From the NCBI GenBank assembly GCA_003167515.1, contig PMSS01000484.1:12780-66284 (forward strand): a stretch of DNA of 53,505 bases, in the 5' to 3' direction. Both the position numbers and the translations under genes were made by a program. Numbering within the stretch: the first letter of the stretch is position 1; the number at the start of each line of letters is the position of its first letter. This DNA is from Acidobacterium sp. (GTDB lineage: Bacteria; Acidobacteriota; Terriglobia; Terriglobales; Acidobacteriaceae). This document shows, in pieces, positions 13,848 through 33,332 of the stretch. The notes under the pieces were generated by a model. The model did not search any database. It saw only the letters and a program-made list of their open reading frames with translations, and was not told the DNA's origin.

Positions 13848-14846
13848 GTGAACTTCGGTGTAATCGGGTACGGTTACTGGGGACCCAATGTAGTGAGGAA
13901 CCTTGCCAGTCTGGAGGGCTCCCAGGTCTTATCCATTGCGGAGCTGAATCCCGCTGCGCAGGCGCGCGCGCGGAAGGCGTATCCGGGGATTCGTGTGACT
14001 GCCGACACGTCGGAAGTGCTCACTTCGCCGGATATCGATGCCATCGCAGTGATCACTCCGGTGTGGACGCATTATGAGCTGGCGAAGGCGGCGCTCGAGA
14101 ACGGGAAACATGTTTTCGTGGAGAAGCCTTTCACCAGCAACGTGGCGCAGGGTGAGAAGCTGATCGATCTGGCAACACGAAAAAACCTGCGAATCATGGT
14201 GGATCACACGTTTCTGTTCACCGGCGCGGTGAGGAAGATCTCGCAGCAGCTGAGAGAAGGAACTCTGGGAAAGCTGTACTACTACGATTCCACTCGAGTG
14301 AATCTGGGACTGTTCCAGCATGACATCAACGTGCTGTGGGATCTTGCGCCGCACGATCTTTCCATCATGGATTACGTAATCGATGGGAATCCGGAGGCGG
14401 TGGTCGCGACCGGGCAAAGCCATCTGAACTGCCACGAAGATGTCGCATTCATGACCCTGTACTTTCCGGAGAGTGTCATCGCCCACATCAACGTGAACTG
14501 GCTTTCGCCGGTGAAAGTGCGCACCACCCTGATTGGCGGCGAAAAGCGGATGCTGGTGTGGAACGACCTCGAGGCCGACGAAAAGGTCAAAGTCTACGAC
14601 AAGGGCGTCAATATCACGAATAACGAAGGCCTCTATTCCCTGCTGGTAAATTATCGCTCCGGCGACATGTGGTCCCCGCAACTGGAGCAGGTTGAGGCGC
14701 TGCGGCAGGAATTGTCTTACTTTGTGGATTGTATTTCCACCGGGCAGGATCCTTTCAACGATGGATGCGCCGGCCTGAGGGTGGTCAAGATGCTCGAGGC
14801 GGCCAGCGAATCGATGAGCAAGAGAGGGTCTTTAGTCTATCTATGA
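13848..14846 (+). CDS. Gfo/Idh/MocA-family NAD(P)-dependent sugar-nucleotide oxidoreductase (WlbA/WbpB-like 3-dehydrogenase candidate)
   Basis: MNFGVIGYGYWGPNVVRNL Rossmann start and the EKPF motif (KHVFVEKPFTSN). Gene order is oxidoreductase, acetyltransferase, aminotransferase. GTG start. Confidence 0.8.
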   Translation: MNFGVIGYGYWGPNVVRNLASLEGSQVLSIAELNPAAQARARKAYPGIRVTADTSEVLTSPDIDAIAVITPVWTHYELAKAALENGKHVFVEKPFTSNVAQGEKLIDLATRKNLRIMVDHTFLFTGAVRKISQQLREGTLGKLYYYDSTRVNLGLFQHDINVLWDLAPHDLSIMDYVIDGNPEAVVATGQSHLNCHEDVAFMTLYFPESVIAHINVNWLSPVKVRTTLIGGEKRMLVWNDLEADEKVKVYDKGVNITNNEGLYSLLVNYRSGDMWSPQLEQVEALRQELSYFVDCISTGQDPFNDGCAGLRVVKMLEAASESMSKRGSLVYL

Positions 14847-15337
14847 TTCCCTGCAACTGTATTGCGGATGACGTAAAACTTGGCTCCAATGTACGGCTTT
14901 CAACGTTCATCAATTTGTATGGATGCCGGATTGGTGACGAGACCAAAATCGGCGCGTTTGTGGAGATCCAGAAGAACGCGAGCGTGGGGAAGCGGTGCAA
15001 GATATCGAGCCATACCTTCATCTGCGAAGGCGTGGTCATCGAGGACAACGTGTTTATCGGTCACGGGGTCACGTTCATCAATGACAGCTTCCCGCGAGCG
15101 ACGGCGCCCGCGGGCGCGCTGCAAACCGAGGCGGACTGGAAGGTCGAGCCAACGGTGATCAGGAGGGGCGCGGCGATCGGCTCCGGGGCCACCGTGCTTT
15201 CCAATGTGAGCGTTGGCGAGAACGCAATCGTCGGCGCCGGCAGTGTTGTAACCAAAGATGTCCCACCGCATGCGATCGTGGCCGGCAATCCGGCCAGGGT
15301 CCTGCGTTATCTCAAAGAGAATGAAGAGGGGCTATGA
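14843..15337 (+). CDS. hexapeptide-repeat (left-handed beta-helix) sugar N-acetyltransferase (WlbB/WbpD-like)
   Basis: Hexapeptide repeats run throughout (IGDETKIGAFVEI, VGKRCKISSHTFI, IEDNVFIGHGVTF, IGSGATVLSNVSVGENAIVGAGSVV) and the protein ends in GNPARV. The ATG at 14843 overlaps the upstream stop (ATGA). The longer track ORF from 14729 would overlap the previous gene. Confidence 0.8.
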   Translation: MIPCNCIADDVKLGSNVRLSTFINLYGCRIGDETKIGAFVEIQKNASVGKRCKISSHTFICEGVVIEDNVFIGHGVTFINDSFPRATAPAGALQTEADWKVEPTVIRRGAAIGSGATVLSNVSVGENAIVGAGSVVTKDVPPHAIVAGNPARVLRYLKENEEGL

Positions 15338-16581
15338 CCTACATCTCGAATGAAATACCCTTTCTTGACCTCGTAACTCCACATCTGGAAATGGAGGAGG
15401 AACTCACCGGGGTATTTAGACAGGCGTTGCGCACCGCCGGATTTATCGGCGGACCAATGGTCGAGGAGTTTGAGCGCGCCTTCGCATCGTTTTGCGAAAC
15501 CAGCTATGCGGTTGGCCTCAACAGCGGGACCGACGCGCTGCGCTTTGCCATCATGGCCTGCGGAATTCAACCGGGCGACGTGGTGGTGACGGTGCCGCAC
15601 ACATTTATCGCCACGACGGAAGCGATCTCCCAGGCGGGAGCGATCGTCGAGTTTGTGGATATCGACGAGAACACGTACAACATGTCGGCCGAGAGGCTGC
15701 GGGTGTATCTGGAAGAAGAGTGCACGCGCGACCAGAAGGGGCGGCCCATCAGCCGGCGGAGCCAGCGCCCGGTGACGGCCGTTGTGCCTGTTCACCTGTA
15801 CGGGCAGATGGCGGACATGGATGCGATTCTCAGCCTGGCGAGCAAATACCAGCTGACCGTCATCGAAGACGCATGCCAGGCGCATGGCGCCGAGTACTTC
15901 TCCAGCAAGCTGAACCGCTGGATGAAGGCGGGAACGATGGGGCGCGCAGCGGCCTTCAGTTTCTATCCGGGCAAGAACCTCGGCGCCTGCGGCGAGGCCG
16001 GGGCGGCGACGACGAACGACCCCGATGTCGCGCGCACGATAAGAATGTTGCGCGATCACGGCCAGGCCAAGAAGTACCACCACGATATTGAGGGCTACAA
16101 CGGGCGGCTCGATGCCATTCAGGCTGGGCTGCTGCATGTGAAGCTGGCGCATCTGGCGACGTGGAATGCCCAGCGCCGCGATCGTGCCGCTGAATACGAC
16201 CGTCTCCTTCGAGGGAATGAAGCGGTGAAATGTCCCTTTGAGCCGTCGTGGTCGAAAGCCGTCTATCACCTGTATGTCATCCAGGTCGCCGATCGCGACG
16301 GGCTGATCAGCCATTTGAATGCGGCGGGGATCGGTTCGGGCGTTCATTACCCGGTTCCGCTGTATTTGCAGAAGGCCTACGCTGGCATGAACTACAGGGC
16401 AGAGGACTTTCCCGTGACCACGCGTGTGGCGTCGAGAATTCTGTCGCTGCCGATGTATCCGCAGCTGACGGCGGCGCAGCAGGCGCGCGTAGCCGAGGAG
16501 GTTCGGGCCTTTACGGCTAAGGCTTCGCGGCGGCCGGAGAAAGCGAAGAGCGCAGCCGTGCTGGCTGAAGTTGTCCGATGA
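15334..16581 (+). CDS. DegT/DnrJ/EryC1/StrS-family PLP-dependent sugar aminotransferase (WlbC/WbpE-like)
   Basis: IPFLDL...FIGGPMVEEFERAFASFCETSYAVGLNSGTDALRFAI...VPHTFIATTEAI, with FSFYPGKNLGACGEAG as the Lys-containing PLP region. ATGA overlaps at both ends. The 449-aa antisense ORF 15307..16656 is a shadow. Confidence 0.9.
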   Translation: MTYISNEIPFLDLVTPHLEMEEELTGVFRQALRTAGFIGGPMVEEFERAFASFCETSYAVGLNSGTDALRFAIMACGIQPGDVVVTVPHTFIATTEAISQAGAIVEFVDIDENTYNMSAERLRVYLEEECTRDQKGRPISRRSQRPVTAVVPVHLYGQMADMDAILSLASKYQLTVIEDACQAHGAEYFSSKLNRWMKAGTMGRAAAFSFYPGKNLGACGEAGAATTNDPDVARTIRMLRDHGQAKKYHHDIEGYNGRLDAIQAGLLHVKLAHLATWNAQRRDRAAEYDRLLRGNEAVKCPFEPSWSKAVYHLYVIQVADRDGLISHLNAAGIGSGVHYPVPLYLQKAYAGMNYRAEDFPVTTRVASRILSLPMYPQLTAAQQARVAEEVRAFTAKASRRPEKAKSAAVLAEVVR

Positions 16582-17909
16582 TCGAGACTGCGAAACAGGG
16601 AGGTCTCGCGACCGATGATGGAGAGATGGCCGGCGAGAGCTCGTCCGAGAGCTCATCAGGGGCGGATGCGGGACCGGTGGCAGCTTCTAACGTGAGCACG
16701 GGGACTCGGCTGGCGGGGAAGCGATGCGGCATGGTGGTGTTTTCGCACTATCCTGCCGATCCGCGGCCGCGCCGGGCGGCGCAGGCGCTGCTCGGCGAAG
16801 GGATGCGCGTGGATCTGATCTGCGAGCAGGACGCAAAGTCCCCGAAGCGGGAAATGGTCGACGGGCTCGAGATCATACGGATTCCCATCCGGCACAGCCG
16901 GGGCGGCTTTCTTTCCTACGCGTATCAATACGCCACGTTCATTCTGATATCGGCTGCCATCTTTGCATGGCGTTCGCTCCGGCGCCGCTACGATCTGGTT
17001 TATGTGCACAACATGCCGGACATCCTTGTGATCGGCGCGCTGATTCCCAAATTGTTCGGTGCGAAGGTCATCCTCGATCAGCATGATCCGATGCCCGAGC
17101 TGATGTTGACGATCTTCAACAAGGACAAAGAAAGTTTCGGTGTGCGGGTGATTCGCTGGCTAGAAAAATGGAGCATTGCGCGCGCTGATCTGGTGATCAC
17201 CGTCAGCGTCACCTTCAAGCGAATCTTTTCGGGGCGCAGTTGCCCGGCGGAGAAGGTCGGCGTGGTTATGAATACTCCAGATGAGAGCCTTTTTCCCTGT
17301 CGTCGAGCGCGCTCCTATCCGGTGCGTCATGCCGGCGATCCGTTCGTGATCATGTATCACGGACTGCTCGAGAGCAGGAACGGCCTGCATGTCGCGGTGG
17401 ACGCCCTGGCGCGATTTCGTAAGAAATTTCCGAATGCCGAACTCCGAATCTACGGGCGCAGCACACCGTATCTCGAACAGGTGCTGGCCACGGTTCGCGA
17501 TCTCGGCGTCGACGGCAGCGTTCATTATCTGGGACCGAGGAAGCTTGAAGAACTGGCGCGCGAGATTGAGCAATGCGACGTGGGAGTCGTTCCGAATCCG
17601 CGCAACGATTTCACGCAAATCAATACGCCGACTCGGATCCTCGAATATCTGGCTCTCGGCAAACCGGTCATCGCTCCCCGCACCGAGGGGATCACGGATT
17701 ACTTCGCCGCGGATTCGCTGTTCTTCTTCGATTCCGGCGACACGAAGGATTTCGAGGAGAAACTGGAATATGTGGCGTCTCATCCGGGCGAAGCGGTCGC
17801 GACGGCGGAGCGGGGGCAGCAAGTCTATCTGCGGCATACCTGGGAACAGGAGAGAGAGGCGCTGGTGAGCCTGGTGACGCAGCTGATCCACCAGGGCAAG
17901 GCGGCCTGA
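16578..17909 (+). CDS. glycosyltransferase, GT4 family (GT-B fold)
   Basis: The N-domain has VVFSHYPADPRPRRAAQAL...DLVYVHNMPD...VILDQHDPMPE. The C-domain has VIMYHGLLESRNG...GVVPN...TPTRILEYLALGKPVIAP. The ATG at 16578 overlaps the upstream stop (ATGA). The first roughly 50 aa are low complexity, and an alternative ATG lies at 16731. Confidence 0.85.
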   Translation: MIETAKQGGLATDDGEMAGESSSESSSGADAGPVAASNVSTGTRLAGKRCGMVVFSHYPADPRPRRAAQALLGEGMRVDLICEQDAKSPKREMVDGLEIIRIPIRHSRGGFLSYAYQYATFILISAAIFAWRSLRRRYDLVYVHNMPDILVIGALIPKLFGAKVILDQHDPMPELMLTIFNKDKESFGVRVIRWLEKWSIARADLVITVSVTFKRIFSGRSCPAEKVGVVMNTPDESLFPCRRARSYPVRHAGDPFVIMYHGLLESRNGLHVAVDALARFRKKFPNAELRIYGRSTPYLEQVLATVRDLGVDGSVHYLGPRKLEELAREIEQCDVGVVPNPRNDFTQINTPTRILEYLALGKPVIAPRTEGITDYFAADSLFFFDSGDTKDFEEKLEYVASHPGEAVATAERGQQVYLRHTWEQEREALVSLVTQLIHQGKAA

Positions 17910-18057
17910 GCCTTTGCCAGGATATCATCGGAGTGGCCGCCCGAGGATCATGCAACGAAGACAAGAGGGGCAGGTTGTCGGGGGCCGACTGTAGTTCCGT
18001 CGATTATCATCCCTGTTCAGCCGGCAGCGTTCCCGTCGGCGTGTCAGTCTGAATCGA

Positions 18058-19512
18058 ATGCCTCCGTCTATAGCGCTAATATTGTGGTTCGTCTCCCTGG
18101 CGGCTCTGTTGTATTTCGACCCCGCCAATGACGCGAGGCTGTCGCCCGCGTCATGGGTGACGGTTGTCTGGCTGTTCATCGCCGGGACACGATTACCGTC
18201 GCAGTGGGTGGGTGGAGCCGGGTCGATGTCGGCAGCGGCGCTCGAGGACGGAAATCCGCTGGACCGGGGTATCTTCATACTCCTGATCCTGCTCTGCGTC
18301 GTAATCCTGATCTCAAGGTCATTCAACTGGAACGGCTTCTTCACGAGCAACCTGGCTTTGACGGCCTTTCTGGTCCTGGCACTGGTCAGCGCGTTTTGGT
18401 CGGACTTTCCCCTGATCGCCATCAAGCGATGGATTCGCGATTTTGGGACTTACCTGATCGTTCTGGTTGTGCTCTCCGATCCTCGACCGCTCGAGGCGGT
18501 GCGCGCGGTCCTTCGCCGGCTGAGTTATCTGCTGATCCCGCTGTCCATTCTGCTCGACAAATATTATCCGGAAGTCAGCAAGCAATACGATCCATGGACC
18601 GGCATTGGCTATTACGCCGGAGCCAGCACCAGCAAGAACATGCTTGGGCTCATGTGCCTGGTCAGCGGGCTGTTTTTCTTCTGGGACATCGTAACGCGGT
18701 GGCGGGACAGGAAGCAGCGGCGCGCGAAGCGGATCCTGCTGATCGACACAGCGTTTTTCGGGATGACAGTATGGCTGCTGCATACGGCTGAGAGCACGAC
18801 ATCGTATGTCTGCCTGGGGATTGGCTGCATAGTGCTGCTGCTGGCCAACGGTAAGATCTACCGGCGCCATCCGCGGCTGGTGCAGATCCTGATCCCGTCG
18901 TTATTCTGCGCTTATCTGATCCTGGACTTTGGGCTGGGCATGAATGGCTCCCTTGCGCAGGCAGTCGGGAAGAACGCGACGCTGAGCGACCGAACCAAAA
19001 TCTGGGCCTTCCTCCTCAGCATGCATACGAACCCGGTGATTGGCACCGGGTACCAGAGTTTCTGGCTCGGCTGGCGCCTCGACTGGGTGTGGACCAGGTC
19101 CGGACTCGGCCATCTCAATGAGGCGCACAATGGCTATCTTGAGGTTTACCTCGAAGAAGGTCTGGTCGGGGTTACGGTGCTCGCGGTTTTTCTGGCGGCA
19201 AGCTATTACGGTATCTGCAAGCGATTAAAGAGATCTTCCAGTCTGGCCGTGCTGGGTATGGCGGTATGGATCGCTTTTTTGTTTTACAACATGTCTGAGG
19301 CCGCCTTTGAAAGTGGCTTGTTCTACGCGATGTTCCTGCTGGGAGTGGTGACACTTCCGCAGCGCTCCGGAAAGCGAGTCAAGGAGGCCGCTGCATTCGA
19401 CACCGCGAAAGCAGAAACATTGGTACCCACACTCGCGGCGAAGACGGCAAGCGCGCGAACCACGAAGTGGCTGGCGCGCGGTAACCCACCTGAGATCAGG
19501 AACCGTTCATAA
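18058..19512 (+). CDS. O-antigen ligase/polymerase-like membrane protein (Wzy_C domain)
   Basis: About 10 or more hydrophobic segments. The characteristic periplasmic-loop motif is GLGHLNEAHNGYLEVYLEEGLVGVTVLAVFL. Confidence 0.8.
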   Translation: MPPSIALILWFVSLAALLYFDPANDARLSPASWVTVVWLFIAGTRLPSQWVGGAGSMSAAALEDGNPLDRGIFILLILLCVVILISRSFNWNGFFTSNLALTAFLVLALVSAFWSDFPLIAIKRWIRDFGTYLIVLVVLSDPRPLEAVRAVLRRLSYLLIPLSILLDKYYPEVSKQYDPWTGIGYYAGASTSKNMLGLMCLVSGLFFFWDIVTRWRDRKQRRAKRILLIDTAFFGMTVWLLHTAESTTSYVCLGIGCIVLLLANGKIYRRHPRLVQILIPSLFCAYLILDFGLGMNGSLAQAVGKNATLSDRTKIWAFLLSMHTNPVIGTGYQSFWLGWRLDWVWTRSGLGHLNEAHNGYLEVYLEEGLVGVTVLAVFLAASYYGICKRLKRSSSLAVLGMAVWIAFLFYNMSEAAFESGLFYAMFLLGVVTLPQRSGKRVKEAAAFDTAKAETLVPTLAAKTASARTTKWLARGNPPEIRNRS

Positions 19513-19565
19513 CTGAGAACCCGGTAGGTTCCGATTGGGCCGGCTGGAGAAAGAACGCGGAGATT

Positions 19566-20459
19566 ATGGATATCTGTGGCAAGGACGGCATGATCGAGGG
19601 AAGGCTGGTGCGTATTGCCCGCCTCGATGCGGAAGGGTTCGATTTTGTGGAGGACCCGGAGGCGGCATTGTCCGCTGTCCGGAAGTCCCGATCGCGTGCC
19701 GACCTGTTTACGTTTACCCAGAGGCTTTCGAATACCACGCCGCAGTACAGCTATCCGATGGAGTGGGACAACATGGCGGCGCTCCGTGTAACCACCTTCG
19801 ATGACTGGATGACGAATCAGCTCGATTTCAAGGCCAGGAACAAAGTTCGAAAGGCCGGGAAAAACGGCGTGGTGGTGCGGGAAGTTTCTTTCAACGACGA
19901 ACTGATCAGGGAGATCTCCGCCATTTACAACGAGTGTCCGATTCGCCAGGGAAAGCCGTTCTGGCATTATGGCAAGGATCTTGAAGCGGTGCGTAGGGTA
20001 AACGAGACCTTTCTGGACCGGAGCGTCTTTATCGGCGCCTCGTGTGAGGGCCGGATGATTGGCTTCGTAAAGCTCGTGATGGACGAGGAAGGAAGCCAGG
20101 CGGGCCTGATGCAGATTGTTTCGATGGTCGGTCAACGGGACAAGGCGCCGAACAATTCCCTGATTGCCCAGGCAGTGCGATCCTGCGCGGATCGGAAGAT
20201 TTCGCACCTGTGGTACGCGAAGTTTTCGTATGGCAAGAAGCAGCGGGACAGTCTGGCTGACTTCAAGGCGAACAATGGCTTTACGAAAGTCGACGTTCCC
20301 AGGTACTACATCCCTTTGACGGTCGCGGGACGGGTCGCGCTCCGTTTCGGTCTGCATCGTACGGCTGCGGACTGGGTTCCCGAGCCGGTCGCAGCGACGT
20401 ACAGAAAACTTCGCAACAGCTGGTATGAGACAAGACACCGCGGTTTTGAGAGTGCTTAG
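19566..20459 (+). CDS. GNAT-fold FemAB/CelD-like acyl- or aminoacyl-transferase
   Basis: FKARNKVRKAGKNGVVVREV...IGFVKLVMDEEGSQAGLMQIVSM...NNSLIAQAVRSCADRKISHLWY...LADFKANNGF matches by eye the FemAB-like/Acetyltransf_6 pattern seen next to AsnB-like genes in EPS loci. The 418-aa antisense ORF 19323..20579 is R/P/G-rich junk. Confidence 0.5.
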   Translation: MDICGKDGMIEGRLVRIARLDAEGFDFVEDPEAALSAVRKSRSRADLFTFTQRLSNTTPQYSYPMEWDNMAALRVTTFDDWMTNQLDFKARNKVRKAGKNGVVVREVSFNDELIREISAIYNECPIRQGKPFWHYGKDLEAVRRVNETFLDRSVFIGASCEGRMIGFVKLVMDEEGSQAGLMQIVSMVGQRDKAPNNSLIAQAVRSCADRKISHLWYAKFSYGKKQRDSLADFKANNGFTKVDVPRYYIPLTVAGRVALRFGLHRTAADWVPEPVAATYRKLRNSWYETRHRGFESA

Positions 20460-20603
20460 CCGTCCCGGGGATGCTCTGCCCTGTGCAGATCCGTTGCCGG
20501 GGCAAAATCGGAGAGTGGATGGGGCTTCTCCCTGCCCTACCTCTTCGGCAAACGCTGCAGGCATCAATGAGGCGAACATTGTGTCAGGCGGAAAACACTA
20601 GCT

Positions 20604-22481
20604 ATGCCAGGAATTGTGGGATGCATCACGCGCCGGCCGCGGGCATTGGCGGAAGCCGAAGTACGGCGCATGACCGACGCTCTGCTGCATGAGCGTTCGT
20701 ATGTGTCGGGTACGTGGGCCGAGGAGCCGCTGGGCGTGTACGTGGGATGGGCGGCGCGGAAGGGCTCTTTCTCCGATCGGATGCCGCTGCGAAATGAAGC
20801 GGGCGACGTGACGCTGGCGTTTGCCGGCGAGGAGTTTCCGGAGCCGGACGTGGCGCAGCGTCTGAAGGAGCGAGGACACGCCGTCGACCTTGAAGGGCCA
20901 TCGTACCTGGTGCATCTTTATGAAGAGGATCCGTCCTTTCCAGCAGGCCTGAACGGGAGATTCCACGGCTTGCTGACCGACAGGAACCGTGGCGAGGCCA
21001 TCCTCTTCAATGATCGCTTCGGGATGCACCGGATCTACTACCACGAGACGAAGGATGCATTCTATTTCGCAGCCGAGGCAAAGGCGATCCTGGCAGTGCG
21101 GTCCGAACTGAGGCGGGTGGATTACCAGGGCCTGGGAGAATTTGTTTCCTGTGGCGCAGTGCTCGAGAACAGGACGCTTTTCGAAGGCATCCAGGTGCTG
21201 CCTCCCGGTTCGGCATGGAAGTTTCGCAACGGATTCCTCGAGCGGAAGAGCAGCTATTTCGAACCGAGGGAGTGGGAGGATCAGGAAGCCCTCGATCCGG
21301 AAGCCTGGTATCAGGAGCTCCGATCGGCATTCACGCGCAACCTTCCGCGGTACTTCGCCGGGCGTGAGCAGATTGGAATGTCGCTGACCGGCGGCCTGGA
21401 CACGCGGATGGTTCTGGCCTGCCGCGAACCAGCCCCCGGCTCGCTCCCCTGTTACACCTTTGGGAGCATGTTCGGCGAACATGAAGATCTCCGGATCGCG
21501 CGGCGCATCGCGGATATTTGCAGTCAGCCGCATCAGGTTCTTACCGCTGGAGAGGAGTTTCTCTCGCAGTTCCGGCATTACGCCGAGCGCGCCGTCTACC
21601 TCACCGATGGAGGCGTGGATGTAAGCCGATCTCCCGACCTCTATTTGAACGAGCAGGCGCGGGAGATTGCGCCCGCCAGAATGACGGGCCTCTATGGCGG
21701 AGAACTCCTGCGAGGCTTTCGCGCGTTCAAGCCGTCGGAACCTTCTGTGGATTTGTATAGCCCGGAATTCCTTTCCAGCATTCGCCGGACATCAACGACC
21801 TATGCAGGACTCCTTGACGGCAACCCGCTCTCTGCTGCCGCCTTCAGGCAAGGGCCCTGGTATCTGTACGGCTCGCTGTCGCTCGAGCAGACGCAGATCA
21901 CCATGCGGTCTCCCTTCCTGGACAATGACTTCGTCCGAACCGTTTTCCGCTCGCCGGCTTCGGCGCTGGGGAGCGACGATGTTTCGCTGCGGCTGATTGC
22001 CGACGGGAATCCCGCTCTGCGGGCCATTCCGACGGATCGGGGTGTAGGCGGCGATCGGGGAAAGATGTTGGGAGGGATTTCCCACGGCTGGCTCGAGTTT
22101 CTCTTCAAAGCGGAGTACGCCTACGACATGGGCATGCCGCAATGGCTGGCGCGTATCGATCATGCTTTTTCGGCGCTCCATCTGGAGCGGCTGTTCCTCG
22201 GCCGGCACAAGCCTTTTCATTTTCGTGTCTGGTACCGCGACGCTCTGGCCGGATACGTGCGGGAAATGCTGCTCGACGAGCGGGCGCTGTCGAGGCCTTA
22301 CATCGAGCGCAGGAATCTCGAGACGGTGGTTGAGGGTCACCTCAAAGGAAACCGGAACTTCACGGTCGAACTGCATAAGGTGCTGACCCTCGAACTGGTA
22401 CACCGCATTTTCCTTGATGGGCAGGACGCCGGGCGGTCGGGAGAATCCCTAGCCTCCGCGGTACCTGCTGCCGCCCTCTGA
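20604..22481 (+). CDS. asparagine-synthetase-family (AsnB-like) ATP-dependent amidoligase lacking the glutaminase nucleophile
   Basis: The N-terminus is MPGIVGC rather than MCGI. The NGEIYN motif is replaced by AGEEFP. The synthetase domain is retained with a variant PP-loop SLTGGLDT (nt 21381-21404). No upstream in-frame start is available. Confidence 0.8.
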   Translation: MPGIVGCITRRPRALAEAEVRRMTDALLHERSYVSGTWAEEPLGVYVGWAARKGSFSDRMPLRNEAGDVTLAFAGEEFPEPDVAQRLKERGHAVDLEGPSYLVHLYEEDPSFPAGLNGRFHGLLTDRNRGEAILFNDRFGMHRIYYHETKDAFYFAAEAKAILAVRSELRRVDYQGLGEFVSCGAVLENRTLFEGIQVLPPGSAWKFRNGFLERKSSYFEPREWEDQEALDPEAWYQELRSAFTRNLPRYFAGREQIGMSLTGGLDTRMVLACREPAPGSLPCYTFGSMFGEHEDLRIARRIADICSQPHQVLTAGEEFLSQFRHYAERAVYLTDGGVDVSRSPDLYLNEQAREIAPARMTGLYGGELLRGFRAFKPSEPSVDLYSPEFLSSIRRTSTTYAGLLDGNPLSAAAFRQGPWYLYGSLSLEQTQITMRSPFLDNDFVRTVFRSPASALGSDDVSLRLIADGNPALRAIPTDRGVGGDRGKMLGGISHGWLEFLFKAEYAYDMGMPQWLARIDHAFSALHLERLFLGRHKPFHFRVWYRDALAGYVREMLLDERALSRPYIERRNLETVVEGHLKGNRNFTVELHKVLTLELVHRIFLDGQDAGRSGESLASAVPAAAL

Positions 22482-22759
22482 TTTTTCTTGTTTCACTGAG
22501 GATTCTGCCATGGAACCAACGTAACCAACCGTGGCCATGATAGACACTTCGGTAACCACAAGCAGATCACTTGCGTACCGAATGTTCTTCGATTAATACA
22601 TGAATTCAGGCCATTTCCGGCCCAGCGGATGAGAGACCCCAGCTGGGGACTTTGGTGTTCGGCACCGATAGCAAAATCTGGACAAATAGCCTTGGGTAGC
22701 GTGATACTCACCTCAACAGTAATCCAAAATACTGGATTCCCCCGAAAGGACGCTCCCCC

Positions 22760-24295
22760 GTGCTTAAGTGTCTGTACGTCAAAATTTCGCCGCTTGTATT
22801 TCTTCTTGCCGTATTTTCCGCGGCAGAAGCGCAGACAACCATCAACGCAGCCTCCTGCAACGTTTCGGACGTGCAGGCGGCCCTGAATAAGATAACGGCC
22901 AACGGAACCACCGTGGCCGTCCCAGCCGGCAGTTGCACCTGGACCTCCGGGATCGCCTTTTCCAGTGCGTATACCTTCACACTCCAGGGACAAAGCGTCG
23001 CAGCCACGACCAATGCTCAGGGCAATCCCGGAACCTTTGCCGACTCTACGCTGATCATCGACGGACAATCCGGAGGAGGCGGGAACAACCCTGTTATCGG
23101 GATCACGCTCACCGGGAGCTCTTCGCAGGTGGTGCGCGTGACGGGTCTGAGCTTTAAGGGCGGTAACGTCGTTTACAACGGCGAGTTGGCCGTGGGCGGC
23201 GCGACCGGACAAGCCCGCGTCGACCATAATCACTTCATTAACATCAACGACCTGGCGATATCGATGTACGAGCCCATGACGGGCGTCGCGGATCACAACA
23301 TATTCGATGTCCCGAACGGAGATGTCTTCAACGGGATTCGGGTTTATAACACCGCAGGCGACGGTTTCGGAGACGCTCCCTGGACGATGCCGCCCGGGCT
23401 GGGAACCGGATCCTTTATCTTTTTCGAGAACAATACATTCAACAACGGCTTCATGAACGATTGCGAAGTGGGTGGAGCTTTCGTTGCCCGGTACAACACG
23501 TTCAACGCGTTGGCCCCCGATCAGAACCTCGGGATTCAGAGCCACGCTACCGGATCGCAACCGCGAGGAAGAGGATGCCGGGCGTGGGAGGTGTATGAGA
23601 ACACCGTCGGCGGCGGCGGCGGCTCGATTATTTCCTCAGTAGGATTTCAGACGGCCGGTACCGGCGTGTGGTGGGGGAACACCATCACCAACACAAAAAA
23701 CGACATTGTGTTCGACGAGGACCGGGACAACTCCAATACCTATCAGCAAAGCTCCCCGCCGAATGGATGGGGCTACTGCGGCTCGGCCCAGTCGGGCACC
23801 CTCAGCTCCTGGGACGGCAATACCAGTTCCACCGGATACCCCTGCCTCGACCAGATCGGACGCGGTCAAGGAGACTCGCTCAGCGGTATGTGGCCGCAGG
23901 TTCTGGACGCCCTCCATGTTGGTCTCTTCACGGGCGTATGGCCGAATGAGGTTTTGCAGCCGGTTTATATCTGGATGGAGAACTTCAGCGGCACAGGGTC
24001 GATCGTCTCGGTCAGCAGTGGAGAAAACAATATCCAGGCCAACCGCGACTACTACGTCCCGGTCTCGCCATTTACCGGCGCAACCGGAACAGGCTACGGC
24101 ACGTATGCATCGATTCCGACCACCTGCACCACAGGCGTAGCGTACTGGGCTACAGATCAGAACAAGCTCTACACCTGCACCGCTACAAATACGTGGACGG
24201 CATATTACACGCCGTACACCTATCCGCATCCGCTGGTCACCGGGACAAGTCCCGCACCGCCGATCTCGCTCTCGGGGACCATTCTCAATAATTGA
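22760..24295 (+). CDS. secreted right-handed beta-helix protein (pectate-lyase-fold; candidate polysaccharide lyase/hydrolase)
   Basis: GTG start and signal peptide LVFLLAVFSAAEA|Q. Repetitive N/G/T/V-rich coils (VDHNHFININD, ADHNIFDVPNGD, FFENNTFNNG, ARYNTFN, VYENTV, WWGNTITN). The C-terminal YTPYTYPHPL motif is common at the end of beta-helix carbohydrate-active domains. Function is inferred. Confidence 0.55.
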   Translation: MLKCLYVKISPLVFLLAVFSAAEAQTTINAASCNVSDVQAALNKITANGTTVAVPAGSCTWTSGIAFSSAYTFTLQGQSVAATTNAQGNPGTFADSTLIIDGQSGGGGNNPVIGITLTGSSSQVVRVTGLSFKGGNVVYNGELAVGGATGQARVDHNHFININDLAISMYEPMTGVADHNIFDVPNGDVFNGIRVYNTAGDGFGDAPWTMPPGLGTGSFIFFENNTFNNGFMNDCEVGGAFVARYNTFNALAPDQNLGIQSHATGSQPRGRGCRAWEVYENTVGGGGGSIISSVGFQTAGTGVWWGNTITNTKNDIVFDEDRDNSNTYQQSSPPNGWGYCGSAQSGTLSSWDGNTSSTGYPCLDQIGRGQGDSLSGMWPQVLDALHVGLFTGVWPNEVLQPVYIWMENFSGTGSIVSVSSGENNIQANRDYYVPVSPFTGATGTGYGTYASIPTTCTTGVAYWATDQNKLYTCTATNTWTAYYTPYTYPHPLVTGTSPAPPISLSGTILNN

Positions 24296-24313
24296 TCATC
24301 GTCCGGTCCGGGA

Positions 24314-24341
24314 CAGCCGCAGCGGTTCGCCACTGCGGCTG
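24314..24341 (+). terminator. GC-rich hairpin (9-bp stem CAGCCGCAG / CTGCGGCTG, 10-nt loop) 19 nt after the beta-helix gene stop
   Basis: Complementarity read directly from the sequence. No U-tract follows. Confidence 0.4.
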
Positions 24342-24373
24342 CCTGGTTCCAGCCTTCAATACCAATCGTTACC

Positions 24374-24408
24374 GTGAACGGGGACTGGCGGTCGAAGTCC
24401 CCGTTCAC
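24374..24408 (+). terminator. strong hairpin (12-bp perfect stem GTGAACGGGGAC / GTCCCCGTTCAC, 11-nt loop) followed by CGGTTTA
   Basis: Complementarity read directly. A short T-run follows. It is the second hairpin in the 291-nt gap before the GT2 gene. Confidence 0.5.
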
Positions 24409-24586
24409 CGGTTTACGGGCGTCGATACTGCCTGTTCGCGACCAGATCGCTCGATCTGGGAGAACCTCTGCACGCCTCATCTGTTCATCGCAACCCTGCA
24501 GGCGGGATCTGCCACGGGAGCGATGAACTGAACGAGGCGCTTCGTTGTAGTTTGAGAATAATAGGAAAGCTCCGCCACGTGCTGCC

Positions 24587-28104: not shown

Positions 28105-29217
28105 ATGATAATTACAAGCACTCCTCTTCGTATTTCATTCTTCGGTGGTGGTACTGACTATCCGGTCTGGTATCGGGAGTACGGCGGCTCAGTACTGTCA
28201 ACCGCGATCGACAAGCGTTGTTACATCACTTGCCGGCGGTTACCGCCCTTTTTTGAATTCCACAGCCGCGTTTCCTACTCAAAGGTTGAAAACGTCGCCA
28301 GCAACAGTGCGATCGAGCACCCTTCCGTCCGCGGTTGTCTGCAATATCTGGGGATGGACGAAGGTGTCGAAATCCATCACGTCGCGGACTTGCCCGCCCG
28401 CACCGGCCTCGGCACGAGTTCGGCATTCACGGTGGGGCTTCTGCTTGCTCTTAACGCGCTCAAAAATCAGATGCGCGATAAGCACACGCTTGCCAGGGAG
28501 GCCATCCATGTCGAGCAGGACGTGTTGGGCGAGGCGGTCGGTGCACAGGATCAGGTGAGCGCCGCGTATGGAGGCCTGAACCGGATCAATTTCTGCCAGA
28601 ATGACTCTATCGACGTGAAGCCGATTCTGCTTTCACAAAGCAGATTGGCGGAACTTGAGCAGAACCTGGCCCTCTTTTTTACGGGTTTCTCCCGTACCGC
28701 ATCGGAAATTGCTCAGGAACAACTGCGGGTGACCCCGAACAAAAAGCAGGAGCTCAACGCGATGCTCGAGCTGGTCGACGAAGGCGAGGCGATTCTTGCG
28801 AATCCGAAACGCCCCATCGACGAGTTCGGCCGGCTCTTACATCAGGGTTGGCAGCTTAAACGGTCGCTGACGAACAAGATATCGAATGCCAGCATTGACG
28901 AGATCTACCAGGCGGGGATGAGCGCCGGCGCGGTGGGAGGCAAGCTGCTGGGCGCCGGTGGAGGCGGGTTTATGTTGTTCTGCGTTCCACCCGAGCGGCG
29001 AGAAGCGTTGAAGGCACGATTGAACAACCTTTTGTGCGTTCCATTTTCTTTCTCCAACCGGGGCAGTCATATCATCGTGTATGAGCCGGAAGAGGTCTAC
29101 GATAAGGAACTCGCGACTCATCGTGGTGCGATCTATGGGTCCGAAGCGCCAGCCGCCGGCATTGGGACTGCGGCTGCCAGCAACGGGCTGCTGGACCACC
29201 CCGTTGAGGTGAAGTAA
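28105..29217 (+). CDS. GHMP-family sugar(-phosphate) kinase (HddA / heptose-7-phosphate-kinase-like)
   Basis: TPLRISFFGGGTDYPVWY start, GHMP motif II (DLPARTGLGTSSAFTVGLLLAL) and motif III (GGKLLGAGGGGFMLF). Confidence 0.75.
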   Translation: MIITSTPLRISFFGGGTDYPVWYREYGGSVLSTAIDKRCYITCRRLPPFFEFHSRVSYSKVENVASNSAIEHPSVRGCLQYLGMDEGVEIHHVADLPARTGLGTSSAFTVGLLLALNALKNQMRDKHTLAREAIHVEQDVLGEAVGAQDQVSAAYGGLNRINFCQNDSIDVKPILLSQSRLAELEQNLALFFTGFSRTASEIAQEQLRVTPNKKQELNAMLELVDEGEAILANPKRPIDEFGRLLHQGWQLKRSLTNKISNASIDEIYQAGMSAGAVGGKLLGAGGGGFMLFCVPPERREALKARLNNLLCVPFSFSNRGSHIIVYEPEEVYDKELATHRGAIYGSEAPAAGIGTAAASNGLLDHPVEVK

Positions 29218-30137
29218 TGAACCGCAGCGGTCTGCCGTATGTTCTCATTACTCCCGCTCGCAATGAGGCGACGTTTATTGAGACGACGATTGAATCCGTG
29301 ATTCATCAAACGGTATTGCCGGAGCGCTGGGTGATCGTGAATGACGGATCGACGGACGATACATCGGCGCGCGTCAAACCGTATCTGGCGGCTTACCCGT
29401 GGATCGAACTGGTTGACCTGCCCGTTCGCAGGGAGCGGCATTTCGCGGCCAAAGTGAGCGCGTTCAATGCCGGTCAGGAACGCCTGAAGGGGCTGGACTA
29501 CGAAATTATCGGCAATCTGGACGGTGATGTCTCGTTCGATAACGATCATCTTGAGTTCCTGCTCACCGAGTTCAGCAAGGACTCGCGTCTGGGCGTGGCG
29601 GGTACCGTCTTCAGGGAAGACGGCTACAGTTCGGAGACCGACAGCTTTGAAGGGCAGAGCCATGTGGCGGGGCAGTGCCAGCTCTTCCGTCGCCAGTGCT
29701 TCGAGGAGATTGGCGGCTATCGTGCCAACAAAGCGGGCGGCATCGACTGGATGGCCTCCACAACGGCGCGCATGATTGGCTGGAAAACCCGATCGTTTCG
29801 TGAAAAGTCGTTCTTTCACCACCGGAAAATGGGAACAGCCGAGCGCGGCCAGCTGGCGTCAAGCTTCTCTTATGGCGAGAAGGATTACTATCTGGGCGGC
29901 CATCCTGTATGGGAGATCTTCCGCGTAGCCTGGAGAATGACCAAGAAGCCCTATCTGGTGGATGGCGTCGCACTGGGTCTCGGATATCTGTGGGCTCTTC
30001 TGCGCCGGGCCAAACGTCCGGTTTCAGATGAACTCATGCGGTTCCACCGTAAGGAGCAGATGCGGAAGCTGAAAAGTATCCTGAGCTCCGTGATTACGAT
30101 GAAACGCTTCAACCGCTTCGAGACGAAGCCCAGCTGA
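29217..30137 (+). CDS. glycosyltransferase, GT2 family
   Basis: YVLITPARNEATFIETTIESVIHQT...WVIVNDGSTDDT...GNLDGDVSF (DxD). The start overlaps the upstream stop by 1 nt (TAATG). Confidence 0.85.
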   Translation: MNRSGLPYVLITPARNEATFIETTIESVIHQTVLPERWVIVNDGSTDDTSARVKPYLAAYPWIELVDLPVRRERHFAAKVSAFNAGQERLKGLDYEIIGNLDGDVSFDNDHLEFLLTEFSKDSRLGVAGTVFREDGYSSETDSFEGQSHVAGQCQLFRRQCFEEIGGYRANKAGGIDWMASTTARMIGWKTRSFREKSFFHHRKMGTAERGQLASSFSYGEKDYYLGGHPVWEIFRVAWRMTKKPYLVDGVALGLGYLWALLRRAKRPVSDELMRFHRKEQMRKLKSILSSVITMKRFNRFETKPS

Positions 30138-31422: not shown

Positions 31423-31430
31423 GAGTCCCT

Positions 31431-33332
31431 ATGTGCGGAATCTGTGGCCAATATAACTATCTGGACGGAGCGCCCGTCTCTCGCCAGGACATCGAGGGGA
31501 TGGCGGATAGTATCGCGCACCGCGGTCCTGACGACGAAGGGTACTTCATTGCAGGGTCAGTGGGTCTTGGGTTTCGTCGTCTGTCGATCATCGATCTCGA
31601 GGGCGGACATCAGCCGATGTCCGATGAAGAGAAGTCCGTGTGGGTTGTTTTTAACGGCGAAATCTACAATTTCCCCGAAGTCAAAAGGGAGCTGGAGAGC
31701 TACGGGCACCGATTCCGGACCAGGTCAGATACCGAAGTCATCGTCCACGGCTACAAGCAGTGGGGCGATGACGTCTTCAATCATCTCAACGGGATGTTCG
31801 GCCTGGCGATCTGGGATGTTCGGAAGCAGAGGCTGGTCCTCGCGCGGGATCCATTCGGAATCAAGCTGATCTATTACAGCCTGAAGAACGGGCAACTGCA
31901 TTTCGGCTCGGAAATCCGCGCGGTGCGGAGCGGGGCCGATGAACCGGCCGAGGTCGATCCGAATTCACTGAACCTGTTTCTCCGGTATCGTTTCACTCCA
32001 TCGCCGCGTACGATCTTTGACGGGATTCAGAAGCTTGCTGCGGGCACGATGCTGGTATGCGAGAACGGGACGGCTTCGGTGCGCCGTTGGTATGGGAATC
32101 GGCCGGTGCCGTTTTCGCCGCCGAAGTCGGTTGGGCAAGCGCGCGAGGAGCTGGCCGAACTCTACCGGCAGGCGATGAAGAGACATCTGCTCAGTGATGT
32201 GCCGGTCGGGCTGTTGTTGAGCGGCGGCGTGGATTCGGGGCTGCTGCTGGCCCTGATGAATCTCTACGGGGAGTCATGGCAAACCTACACCGTAGGCTAC
32301 GGCACGAGTTTCAGCGACGACGAGTTAGCCGACGCTGCCGACACCGCCAGGAGATTTGGCGCGCGGCATACCAGCGTGATGCTGGACAGGAAGAGCTTTG
32401 AAGAAGCGTTGCCGGCGATCGTTGCGCAGCTGGAGGAGCCGATCGCGTCTTCGTCGATTGTTCCAATGTATTTTGTATGCAAGCGGGCCCGCGAAGATGT
32501 GAAGGTTGCGTTGATCGGGCAAGGCCCCGACGAGCTCTTTGGGGGCTATCGCCGCCACCTTGGCATTCAGTATGGATCGTATTGGCGCGCGCTACCGGCG
32601 TGGATGCGCGCTCCGCTGGTTCGGGCGATCATGGCGCTGCCACGCAATGAGGCTCTGAAGAGAGGCGTTCACTCCCTCGGCTCCGGGGATCGGATCCAGA
32701 AGTATCAGCAGGTATTATCTCTGCTGCCCGGGGATGAGATTGACGCGCTGTTTCATGACGGCTTGCTCGATCGGGACGCGGGCAATGAGCTGCTCGAATG
32801 CTGGAAGGATCTGTTGCCGCTGATGAGCGAGACGGATGAGCTGGGCGGTTTCCAGTTCCTCGAAATGAGATCGACTCTTCCCGACGAGCTGCTGATGTAC
32901 GGCGATAAGCTCTCGATGGCCCACGGCCTCGAGGGGCGGGTGCCTTATCTGGACAAAGAAGTCGTCGAATATGTTGAGAGATTGCCGGCCAGGTTCAAGG
33001 TGCATTTCGGGACGCGAAAATGGCTGCATCGCAAGGTAGCCGGGGAATTTCTTCCCCGGGAGGTCCTCACCAGAAAGAAACGCGGCTTCGCGGTGAACGT
33101 TGTGGACGAGTGGTTTCGCGGATCGATGACCGCGGGAATGACGGATATTGTGATGAACAGCGATTCGCTGCTTTATCGCTATCTGAGGCCATCGGCGGTG
33201 CAGCGCATCTTCCTGGAGCATCAGTCAGGTCAGAATGACTATCACAAGATATTATTCAGCCTGATGGTTTTCGAGGAATGGCTTCGGGTTCAGCTCTCTT
33301 CCGATGTTGGTGTGGGAATGGCGCGCACATAA
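31431..33332 (+). CDS. asnB: asparagine synthase (glutamine-hydrolysing) family amidotransferase, canonical active sites
   Basis: MCGICG N-terminal nucleophile, RGPDDEG, VFNGEIYNF, DTEVI and the PP-loop LLSGGVDSG. Given the locus context it is probably a sugar-carboxylate amidotransferase rather than housekeeping AsnB; that is inference. Confidence 0.85.
   Translation: MCGICGQYNYLDGAPVSRQDIEGMADSIAHRGPDDEGYFIAGSVGLGFRRLSIIDLEGGHQPMSDEEKSVWVVFNGEIYNFPEVKRELESYGHRFRTRSDTEVIVHGYKQWGDDVFNHLNGMFGLAIWDVRKQRLVLARDPFGIKLIYYSLKNGQLHFGSEIRAVRSGADEPAEVDPNSLNLFLRYRFTPSPRTIFDGIQKLAAGTMLVCENGTASVRRWYGNRPVPFSPPKSVGQAREELAELYRQAMKRHLLSDVPVGLLLSGGVDSGLLLALMNLYGESWQTYTVGYGTSFSDDELADAADTARRFGARHTSVMLDRKSFEEALPAIVAQLEEPIASSSIVPMYFVCKRAREDVKVALIGQGPDELFGGYRRHLGIQYGSYWRALPAWMRAPLVRAIMALPRNEALKRGVHSLGSGDRIQKYQQVLSLLPGDEIDALFHDGLLDRDAGNELLECWKDLLPLMSETDELGGFQFLEMRSTLPDELLMYGDKLSMAHGLEGRVPYLDKEVVEYVERLPARFKVHFGTRKWLHRKVAGEFLPREVLTRKKRGFAVNVVDEWFRGSMTAGMTDIVMNSDSLLYRYLRPSAVQRIFLEHQSGQNDYHKILFSLMVFEEWLRVQLSSDVGVGMART

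Follow-up and report, generated by a model that had tools for sequence, protein, structure and literature searches.

We propose that two adjacent genes in a polysaccharide locus of an Acidobacterium species encode enzymes that most likely add amide-linked amino-acid groups to a sugar polymer. One is a Fem/MprF-type tandem-GNAT transferase (P0001) and the other is an AsnB-fold protein (P0002) that has lost the glutaminase nucleophile, and together they probably represent a two-enzyme module for tailoring exopolysaccharide (EPS) repeat units within the Wzx/Wzy-dependent pathway of peat and soil Acidobacteriota, by the mechanism proposed below. Few enzymes are known that link amino acids to bacterial glycans through amides, and the pair provides concrete candidates from organisms that are abundant in peat and soil. 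If the proposal is true, tRNA-dependent aminoacylation, which is known from peptidoglycan, from membrane lipids and from a handful of antibiotics, reaches bacterial EPS as well. No description of the pair was found in the literature outside subscription journals on nucleophile-less AsnB proteins in glycan loci, tRNA-dependent EPS modification or acidobacterial EPS clusters.

The gene pair and its polysaccharide locus

The window, by which we mean the whole stretch of 53,505 nucleotides that was analyzed, contains the following features, all on the forward strand. The coordinates and open reading frames of the pair match those of the initial annotation exactly.

13848..16581, + strand, WlbA/WlbB/WlbC-like cassette (GFO oxidoreductase, hexapeptide acetyltransferase, DegT aminotransferase)
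18058..19512, + strand, Wzy_C/O-antigen-ligase-like membrane protein, 484 aa (Pfam Wzy_C, 4.9e-11), directly upstream of the pair
19566..20459, + strand, P0001, Fem/MprF-type tandem-GNAT transferase (ORF; 297 aa, pI 9.4, soluble, unnamed family)
20460..20603, + strand, spacer of 144 nt between P0001 and P0002
20604..22481, + strand, P0002, AsnB-fold protein of 625 aa with a dead Ntn-glutaminase domain and a PP-loop adenylating domain
29217..30137, + strand, GT2 glycosyltransferase (Pfam Glycos_transf_2)
31431..33332, + strand, P0003, canonical AsnB paralogue (MCGICG, SGGVDS; TIGR01536, 448.6 bits)

The window also holds a priming transferase, glycosyltransferases, Wzx, a Wzy-like gene and an XrtA-type export core, for which TIGR03027, 03007, 03015 and 03018 all match window genes. 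A search of the 87%-complete genome (G000) for an exosortase (PF09721) yielded none. The Wzy-like protein directly upstream of the pair has about 10 hydrophobic segments, and its orthologue is present in 71 of the 80 genome loci and in all five of the phylum genomes examined. The WlbABC-like cassette, which makes an amino sugar and could supply the amine acceptor, is also near the pair in loci L010, L011, L013 and L015 and in 19-24 of the 80 loci. The GT2 enzyme is the likely source of the acceptor sugar; its orthologue lies less than 8 kb from the pair in 38 of the 80 loci and adjoins it in L011-L013. The locus had been described as a uronic/amino-sugar locus, and the amino-sugar part of this description stands by virtue of the WlbABC-like cassette. 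The uronic part could not be confirmed: the window contains no uronate-forming nucleotide-sugar 6-dehydrogenase, two such genes being located elsewhere in the genome. A second AsnB had been recognized as fully canonical, and P0003 does have the MCGICG start and SGGVDS motif and clears the TIGR01536 cut-off (267.1), scoring 498 bits against TIGR03108, which is under the cut-off of 816.9. P0003 shares 27% identity with P0002 over residues 56-294, the two are not redundant, and it is presumably a glutamine-dependent amidotransferase that forms a uronamide or other amide.

The pair is tightly conserved. The two genes co-occur in the same six of 301 sampled phylum genomes, with P0002 alone in none, and they are adjacent and on the same strand in five of the six. 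A P0002-type gene follows the Fem-like gene in 77 of the 80 genome loci, and some AsnB-like gene lies downstream of it in 112 of 120 loci overall. Within polysaccharide loci, the two genes strictly co-occur as neighbors. In addition, two independent natural fusions join a Fem-like domain to an orthologue of the GT2 enzyme, which shares 48% identity with the N-terminal half of one (P0380, found on two contigs) and 56% with the other (P0395). An apparent fusion of Fem-like and AsnB-like proteins (P0397) was discarded, since it is a chimeric ORF produced by a frameshift, and the sequence that separates its two homologous parts is garbage. A complex prediction for P0002 and P0001 gave a score of 0.00 and counts neither way. 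Both genes are covered by RNA-library contigs from four studies (such libraries can include DNA), with one contig bridging the P0001-P0002 junction, and the spacer is mostly or fully covered by them. Promoter and terminator counts in a scan of positions 17900-24700 were at the level of chance.

The two proteins of the pair

The N-terminus of P0002 is MPGIVGC, with no Cys nucleophile exposed after removal of the Met, and residues 74-79 are AGEEFP at the place where the canonical paralogue has NGEIYN. These features were recognized in the initial annotation, and the loss of glutaminase residues extends to the whole family. Pro2 is kept in 111 of 112 full-length orthologues that range from 34 to 100% in identity, and Asn74 is replaced by Ser (93) or Ala (13) among these 112, with Gly75 and Glu76 retained. 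The Arg49 region is variable (R in 73, Q in 13, H in 12) and the Asp98 position is Ser. We take Arg49, Asn74-Gly75-Glu76 and Asp98 to be the oxyanion and glutamine-binding residues (E. coli AsnB numbering). With Pro in place of Cys1 and Ser or Ala in place of Asn74, hydrolysis of glutamine by P0002 is therefore not possible, and the glutaminase site, as judged from the alignment, is dead across the family. An error of sequencing or annotation that removed an MCG start is ruled out by the orthologues, by the reads and by the lack of an upstream in-frame start, since the open frame extends a mere 11 codons beyond the ORF. The same bases over Pro2 are found in independent assemblies of DNA and RNA, an RNA-library contig spans positions 19767-22249 with zero differences, and all of the sampled sequence words are present in 14 DNA runs.

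The synthetase half of P0002 has been retained, including the variant PP-loop (SLTGGLDT, residues 260-267, S260-L-T-G-G-L-D-T267) that had been noted previously. T262, G264, D266 and R268, together with E367, R435, P437 and K536 downstream, are invariant in the 112 orthologues, and the invariance of the PP-loop, D266, R268, E367, R435 and K536 is what one sees in an ATP site that works. The protein matches Pfam Asn_synthase (PF00733; 47.9 bits vs 21), and Foldseek searches with its model retrieved TsnB9, AsnB, ASNS and beta-lactam synthetase with E values of 1e-12 to 1e-15. The model is of moderate quality (pLDDT 72), and its confidence is low close to where the active site is presumed to be (residues 331-365 and 421-439). 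The C-terminal half is divergent, and mapping it onto AsnB by sequence largely fails: some 250 C-terminal residues have no alignment, and only R435-x-P-F-L-D aligns, weakly, with the AsnB motif VEARVPFLD. By a motif reading, the P0002 family has Asn, Leu or Thr at the position that corresponds to catalytic Glu348 in E. coli AsnB. Nonetheless, column identity averages 72% along the full length, a sign that all of the protein is under strong selection.

The P0002-type genes constitute a large, unnamed subfamily of AsnB proteins of which the hallmark is the invariant N-terminal proline. P0002 scores 102 bits against TIGR01536 (cut-off 267.1), with only residues 3-380 matched, 104 bits against TIGR03108 (cut-off 816.9), and 57.5 bits (9e-16) against the lasso cyclase model NF033535 (cut-off 525). 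The neighbors of the pair are glycan genes, with none from a lasso or beta-lactam pathway in sight. Public records give members of the subfamily the name "asparagine synthase (glutamine-hydrolysing)", which is incorrect where the nucleophile is missing.

P0001 has no Pfam or NCBIfam match of its own, the best being FemAB at E=0.084 (PF02388, 12.1 bits, under the gathering score of 24), and it has no match to TIGR03019 at E<=0.01. Among 89 relatives, 18 match TIGR03019 weakly (best 1.4e-4), and matches to Acetyltransf_1 (39), Acetyltransf_6 (33), FemAB (26, best 2.7e-7) and LPG_synthase_C (5) are also found. The AlphaFold (AF2) model has a pLDDT of 95.9, and comparisons by Foldseek and VIA-align gave FemX (6snr) with Z 19.6, the aminoacyl-tRNA-dependent peptide synthases Sba18 and Sbb17 bound to streptothrisamine with Z of about 19 (rmsd 3.0-3.1), FemA with Z 17.7, FemX of W. 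viridescens with Z 17.2, and MprF with Z 14-16, with 245-248 residues aligned to FemX and FemA. CoA-dependent tandem GNATs fit worse (Z 13-15, rmsd >6), although the top PDB matches at the sequence level are CoA-dependent GNATs such as PaiA (6e-5). GNAT folds can also use acyl-CoA. Where CoA-dependent GNATs (PF00583) would have their pyrophosphate-binding loop after strand 4, the aligned sequence of P0001 reads R191-D-K-A-P-N, a degenerate stretch (family consensus R-D-K-x-P-x-N), and relative to the Q/R-x-x-G-x-G/A loop it has Ala for the first Gly and Asn or Thr for the second. It has no TM segments. The FemAB/GNAT assignment of this neighbor is thus upheld at the level of both family and fold, as a Fem/MprF-type tandem GNAT. 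Both proteins have numerous relatives, with about 6,000 homologues of P0001 and 7,700 of P0002 from word-limited searches alone, and the P0001 relatives represent 1,021 clusters at 50% identity.

Linked tRNA genes, proposed mechanism and alternatives

A same-strand tRNA gene lies no more than 450 nt after the Fem-like gene in 32 of the 151 related loci with enough downstream sequence (Thr 26, Asn 5, Gly 1), and where an AsnB-like gene follows in these loci the tRNA stands between the two genes. The tRNA-linked loci belong to the sister clade or clades of the window's Fem-like clade (38-50% identity), and the tRNA type tracks the Fem-like tree, with 9 changes vs 30.5 expected by shuffling. The Thr-type linked tRNAs have T-stem mismatches, and the linked tRNA of genome G135 has the second-lowest score among the 40 tRNAs of that genome. 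ARAGORN detected no tRNA in the window, and there is none in the 80 loci of the window's own Fem-like clade, which is separated from the tRNA-linked clades by a long branch (0.67). Hence the donor could have changed, and it is by homology only that we infer the use of aminoacyl-tRNA here. The 33 tRNAs listed by ARAGORN in this 87%-complete MAG include a single, canonical-looking tRNA-Thr(CGT) and no odd extra tRNA. In the 144-nt spacer, the best Rfam hit was a sub-threshold c-di-AMP match (17.3 bits vs 38, E=0.86) that we take as chance, the fold z-score was -1.48, and blastn detected no conservation in related loci.

The initial annotation viewed the genes as a Cys-less AsnB and a Fem-like protein paired in a glycan locus, and every part of that reading open to computation held, with the sister-clade tRNA genes and the GT2 fusions providing added support. 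Donor and acceptor, the sequence in which the two enzymes act and what the invariant proline at the N-terminus does are all inferred, as follows. P0001 in the cytoplasm would transfer the aminoacyl group from aminoacyl-tRNA to the free amine of an amino sugar in amide linkage, where the amino sugar would be part of a nucleotide- or undecaprenyl-linked repeat unit and would derive from the WlbABC-like cassette and the GT2 enzyme. P0002 would then adenylate a carboxylate on the same repeat unit, either at C6 of a uronic acid or on an attached residue, and couple it to an amine from a source other than glutamine: the amine of the attached amino acid, another amine or free ammonia. The product would be a second amide, possibly a lactam. 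A bolder and speculative version is that the repeat unit is aminoacylated from aminoacyl-tRNA, by way of a private, translation-poor tRNA in the sister lineages, and that the AsnB-derived enzyme closes a second amide or lactam with its N-terminal Pro perhaps active in catalysis, as a general base or by forming an iminium, where the glutaminase site used to be. If this version is true as a whole, a secreted polysaccharide would carry 'stem' chemistry like that of peptidoglycan, and the Ntn fold would have been put to a new use.

The pair might instead carry out more ordinary decorations, P0001 as an acyl-CoA-dependent N- or O-acyltransferase (a CelD/BioF2-like GNAT) and P0002 as an ammonia-dependent uronamide synthase for which free NH3 replaces glutamine, with no part for a tRNA in this clade, although we consider this unlikely. 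The relatives of P0001 match Acetyltransf_1 and Acetyltransf_6 as often as FemAB, PaiA and other CoA-dependent GNATs are its best sequence-level PDB matches, and the window's 80-locus clade is devoid of linked tRNA genes. AsnB Cys1 mutants keep ammonia-dependent synthesis, in line with an ammonia-dependent P0002. AsnB-type enzymes in glycan loci are tied to uronamides (b-Cool; PMC12407052). On the other hand, P0001 fits the Fem/MprF structures (Z 15-20, rmsd 3-4) better than the CoA-dependent tandem GNATs and, as far as the sequence alone can be read, seems not to retain the canonical CoA loop, its sister clades have their own tRNA genes, the locus already contains a canonical AsnB, and an invariant N-terminal Pro within a conserved N-domain is unexpected if that domain were merely bypassed.

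It is less probable still that the pair acts on a non-glycan substrate that is made or exported together with the polysaccharide (a lipid anchor, for instance, or a small peptide, or a protein that is secreted or PEP-CTERM-like), with P0002 forming an intramolecular amide in the manner of the lasso-peptide or beta-lactam cyclases. Cys-less beta-lactam synthetase, carbapenam synthetase and lasso cyclases do close amides within substrates that are not sugars, lipids are aminoacylated by the MprF-type relatives of P0001, and P0002 has its weak match to NF033535, but that match is far under the cut-off. Furthermore, the fusion partner of the Fem-like domain is a glycosyltransferase, the constant neighbors are Wzy-like, glycosyltransferase and amino-sugar genes, an inspection next to the pair that took in small ORFs only unsystematically brought up neither a precursor-peptide-like ORF nor a protease partner, and the genome, at its 87% completeness, yielded no exosortase. 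The least probable of these alternatives is that P0002 has lost both chemistries and is a non-catalytic pseudoenzyme, whose part as a scaffold or regulator would be to hold on to the Fem-like enzyme, the tRNA or the sugar. The dead glutaminase site, the non-acidic residue at the Glu348 position and the unalignable C-terminal region would all fit such a role, but the PP-loop, D266, R268, E367, R435 and K536 would hardly be invariant in 112 sequences down to 34% identity, nor would column identity be so high over the whole length.

Comparison with known systems

The same combination of Fem-like and AsnB-like genes with an XrtA-type export core is found in the XrtA/PEP-CTERM EPS loci (TIGR03019 and TIGR03108). 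P0001, however, falls outside TIGR03019, P0002 falls outside TIGR03108 and lacks the Cys, and the window's genome, unlike those systems, has no detected exosortase (87% complete). P0002 shares the two-domain fold of AsnB and the AsnB-type sugar amidotransferases (TIGR01536, TIGR03108) and keeps the PP-loop, R-x-P-F-L-D and K-x-x-F motifs, but it differs from them in the changes of Cys1 to Pro and of Asn74 to Ser or Ala and in its scores of 102-104 bits against cut-offs of 267/817. It also sits beside a canonical paralogue in its polysaccharide locus. Such AsnB-type enzymes of glycan loci have been linked to uronamides, an example being BB0880 of the Bordetella b-Cool locus (PMC12407052). The AsnB fold with an inactive N-domain is one that P0002 has in common with beta-lactam synthetase, carbapenam synthetase and the McjC-type lasso cyclases, and it matches 1jgt, 1mb9 and 1q15 structurally with E of ~1e-12. 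Cys-less AsnB homologues of this kind use ATP to adenylate a carboxylate that is captured by a substrate amine rather than by glutamine-derived ammonia. The N-terminus is not known to be conserved in these families, whereas P0002 keeps M-P-G-I-V-G, and its partner and context differ too.

P0001 and the C-terminal domain of MprF (aminoacyl-phosphatidylglycerol synthase) are of the same fold class, and both are basic and at the cytoplasmic face. MprF has a membrane flippase domain and a lipid acceptor, whereas P0001 has neither flippase domain nor TM segments and its genomic context points to a sugar. The tandem-GNAT, two-domain fold of P0001 is common to FemX, FemA and FemB and to the streptothricin-type enzymes Orf11, Sba18 and Sbb17 (Z 17-20), but the identity is only 12-16%. 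P0001 also lacks about 40 of the N-terminal residues of FemX (they align from residue 41-43 of the FemX chain onward), it would lack the coiled-coil insert of FemA, judging from its 297 aa vs 400 for the FemA chain, and it resides in an EPS locus rather than in a peptidoglycan system or antibiotic cluster. Staphylococcal Fem enzymes are served by a dedicated, non-proteinogenic tRNA-Gly, which the linked tRNAs of the P0001 relatives recall. The Fem-like enzyme Orf11 transfers Gly from Gly-tRNA onto the amino sugar streptothrisamine (PMC12945691). There is thus a Fem precedent for moving an amino acid from aminoacyl-tRNA to the amine of an amino sugar, and relatives of P0001 have a tRNA gene directly downstream.

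Two adjacent genes and their conservation

The Fem-like protein P0001 and its AsnB-like partner P0002 are encoded by open reading frames that match the window exactly at the coordinates of the initial annotation, with a gap of 144 nt between them, and the fully canonical AsnB paralogue (P0003) that it had reported is also present.

Window 19566-20459, + strand: P0001, Fem-like protein, 297 aa ORF
Window 20604-22481, + strand: P0002, AsnB-like partner, 625 aa ORF
Window 31431-33332: P0003, canonical AsnB, starts MCGICG

Translation of P0002 gives the N-terminus MPGIVGC, without Cys2, and comparison with P0003 shows AGEEFP in place of NGEIYN and the variant PP-loop SLTGGLDT in place of SGGVDS, all as originally read. 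An error restoring an MCG start was looked for and none was found, as the bases are supported by 14 DNA runs (peat and permafrost), in which all sampled words are present, and by an RNA-library contig that spans 19767-22249 with zero differences. The open frame of P0002 exceeds the ORF by only 11 codons and holds no alternative start. The bases at the pair are no assembly slip.

In a phylum sample of 301 genomes, six carry a P0001 orthologue, and these six alone have a P0002 orthologue (E<1e-60); in five of them the two genes are neighbours with the same orientation. Among 80 genome loci retrieved by their Fem-like protein, nearly all in MAGs of Acidobacteriota and a few in bins with other labels, a P0002-type gene directly follows the Fem-like gene in 77, and an AsnB-like gene lies downstream in 112 of the 120 loci with at least 2.5 kb of downstream sequence. 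The M-P start is retained even in partners at 34% identity. The coupling of a Fem-like gene to a Cys-less AsnB, first noticed in this one stretch, is thus conserved, and the two genes form one unit. Both are covered by metatranscriptome contigs from four peat/permafrost studies, and one contig bridges the junction, which is compatible with co-transcription, although contigs are no proof of it.

Two copies look like decaying forms of the module. In L014 (genome G159) the Fem-like match (7524-8444) has an internal TAA and the AsnB-like gene (16610-18433) is 8 kb off, and genome G032, from which a P0002 orthologue is absent, has a 40-residue Fem-like relic with a stop (contig C9, 7162-7281). Loci L076, L077 and L078, from bins assigned to Acidobacteria gp1, gp2 and Verrucomicrobia, encode identical Fem-like proteins, and the contig names of these bins point to one sampling campaign. 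Where a locus among the 80 has a non-acidobacterial label (Nitrospirae, Rokubacteria, Verrucomicrobia, Baltobacteraceae, delta proteobacterium), misbinning may be the cause, not gene transfer.

Folds and active sites of the two proteins

P0001 is basic (pI 9.4), lacks membrane segments and has no Pfam or NCBIfam match, the best being FemAB at E=0.084. An exhaustive search placed its relatives in 1,021 clusters; the Pfam matches among 89 aligned relatives are Acetyltransf_1 (39), Acetyltransf_6 (33), FemAB (26) and LPG_synthase_C (5), and TIGR03019 is weakly matched by 18 relatives. Its AlphaFold model has high confidence (pLDDT 95.9), and Foldseek and VIA-align agree on FemX, Sba18/Sbb17, FemA and MprF as its top structural group. 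Judged by its predicted structure, P0001 is a Fem/MprF-type tandem GNAT, and the fold matches and the family-level Pfam matches of its relatives bear out its first description as a FemAB-like GNAT protein.

The Pfam matches of P0002 are GATase_7 (5e-13) and Asn_synthase (2e-12, model positions 1-143 only); against NCBIfam, its scores for AsnB, the XrtA amidotransferase and the lasso cyclases stay far under the cut-offs. Its AlphaFold model is moderate (pLDDT 72), and in a structure search it resembles TsnB9, E. coli AsnB, human ASNS, beta-lactam synthetase and carbapenam synthetase. Across 112 full-length orthologues from related loci (34-100% identity), Pro2 is present in 111, the Asn74 position is Ser or Ala, and Gly75 and Glu76 are invariant, as are T262, G264, D266 and R268 of the PP-loop and E367, R435, P437 and K536. 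The VEARVPFLD stretch of AsnB aligns with R435-x-P-F-L-D of P0002, and the position that we take, by our own motif reading, to be that of the catalytic Glu348 of AsnB holds Asn, Leu or Thr; past residue ~370 a sequence alignment of the two is impossible. At the level of sequence, these losses and retentions, together with the non-alignable C-terminal part, exclude glutamine hydrolysis by P0002, make adenylation chemistry likely and imply that its specificity for substrates must be other than in asparagine synthesis.

Polysaccharide locus, and tRNA genes linked to relatives of the pair

A large EPS locus of the Wzx/Wzy type makes up the window, with an XrtA-type export core (TIGR03027, 03007, 03015 and 03018), a priming transferase, several glycosyltransferases, Wzx, a pyruvyl transferase, a PIG-L deacetylase and a rare-sugar cassette. 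Despite this export core, an exosortase (PF09721) was not found in the source genome (87% complete); there is no nucleotide-sugar 6-dehydrogenase within the window, and two are present elsewhere in the genome.

Window 38602-39372: PIG-L-family de-N-acetylase of the EPS locus

This de-N-acetylase could unmask a sugar amine as a site of acylation; its gene does not belong to the set that is co-conserved with the pair. A Wzy_C-like gene lies upstream of the pair in 71 of the 80 genome loci, an orthologue of the glycosyltransferase GT2 (window 29217-30137) accompanies it in 38, and the WlbABC-like amino-sugar cassette is a further constant companion. In two independent natural fusions, a P0001-like domain is joined to a GT2 orthologue (48% and 56% identity): P0380, on two contigs (L015:10001-11926 and L016:4144-6069), and P0395. 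They tie the Fem-like enzyme to a sugar-transfer step. In other rare fusions (P0394, P0396) the partner of the Fem-like domain is a methyltransferase, of the FkbM type or of class I.

The genes at window 30160-33332, for an unassigned 420-aa protein and for the canonical AsnB, are found again in the neighbourhood of the Fem-like gene, the former in 31 and the latter in 20 of the 80 genome loci; among 35 of the longer loci from metagenomes, 12 show this recurrence. The tailoring module may therefore have more than two genes. Locus L010 (genome G135) is close to the window in Wzy (61% identity), GT4 (67%), DegT (68%) and P0002 (70%), but its Fem-like protein is only 41-45% identical to that of the window, has a deletion of ~16 residues and is accompanied by a tRNA-Thr. 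Of the parts of the locus, the transferase looks like the one that can be exchanged and that sets specificity.

No tRNA gene was found in the window. In related loci (e.g., in genomes G135 and G264), a same-strand tRNA gene directly follows the Fem-like gene, before the AsnB-like gene where there is one, and such linked tRNAs occur in 32 of 151 loci (26 Thr, 5 Asn, 1 Gly).

L010:7543-7618, - strand: linked tRNA, same strand as Fem-like gene
L013:9359-9433, + strand: linked tRNA, same strand as Fem-like gene
L015:11943-12017, + strand: linked tRNA, same strand as fused Fem-like gene
29 further loci among L101-L180: linked tRNA

At L015 the tRNA follows the GT2-fused gene, and the AsnB-like gene lies at a distance of ~6 kb in the opposite orientation. 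The anticodons are CGT, TGT or AGT (Thr), GTT (Asn) and TCC (Gly), and CCA is encoded in all of the linked genes. Thr- and Gly-type copies have a common, mismatched T-arm and in many cases no GG in the D-loop, the acceptor stem and irregular T-arm are common to the Thr-type copies, and the linked tRNA of G135 is the second-weakest of its genome against the Rfam model. In a tree of Fem-like proteins the tRNA type clusters by clade; P0001 falls in an 80-member long-branch clade without linked tRNA, whose sister group is a mixture of tRNA-linked and tRNA-less clades. There is thus strong contextual evidence that the Fem-like family uses aa-tRNA, and by homology the clade of the window would do the same.

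Proposed reactions and known systems

We propose that P0001 would transfer an aminoacyl group from aa-tRNA onto the amino group of a repeat-unit amino sugar, and that P0002 would adenylate a carboxylate of the same repeat unit and couple it to a non-glutamine amine; donor, acceptor and order of steps, like any role of Pro1, are part of this proposal. CoA-dependent acylation by P0001 with NH3-dependent amidation by P0002 is a rather unlikely alternative: CoA-using tandem GNATs do appear among the structural matches, but they rank below the Fem/MprF group and are clearly worse fits. It is improbable that a pair with such constant glycan-related companions acts on a non-glycan substrate, and more improbable still that P0002, its glutaminase site lost and its ATP site kept, is a pseudoenzyme.

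Both proteins lie within known superfamilies but score under the threshold of each curated family against which they were compared, and a published description of the pair, or of tRNA-dependent EPS modification, was not found in the literature searched. Ntn amidotransferases have Cys1, whereas the P0002 family has Pro at this exact nucleophile position, and its conservation is as strict as in the ATP site. The same strictness holds for the whole N-terminal M-P-G-I-V-G (window 20604-20612 and the 112 orthologues), and removal of Met would leave a free secondary amine in place of Cys1. A precedent for tRNA-dependent transfer by P0001 is documented in a review (PMC12945691), by which Fem-like enzymes are able to aminoacylate an amino sugar with aa-tRNA as donor. 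The best fold matches of P0001 all use aa-tRNA, and they include Sba18 and Sbb17, aminoacyl-tRNA-dependent peptide synthases of the same fold whose structures were solved with the amino sugar streptothrisamine.
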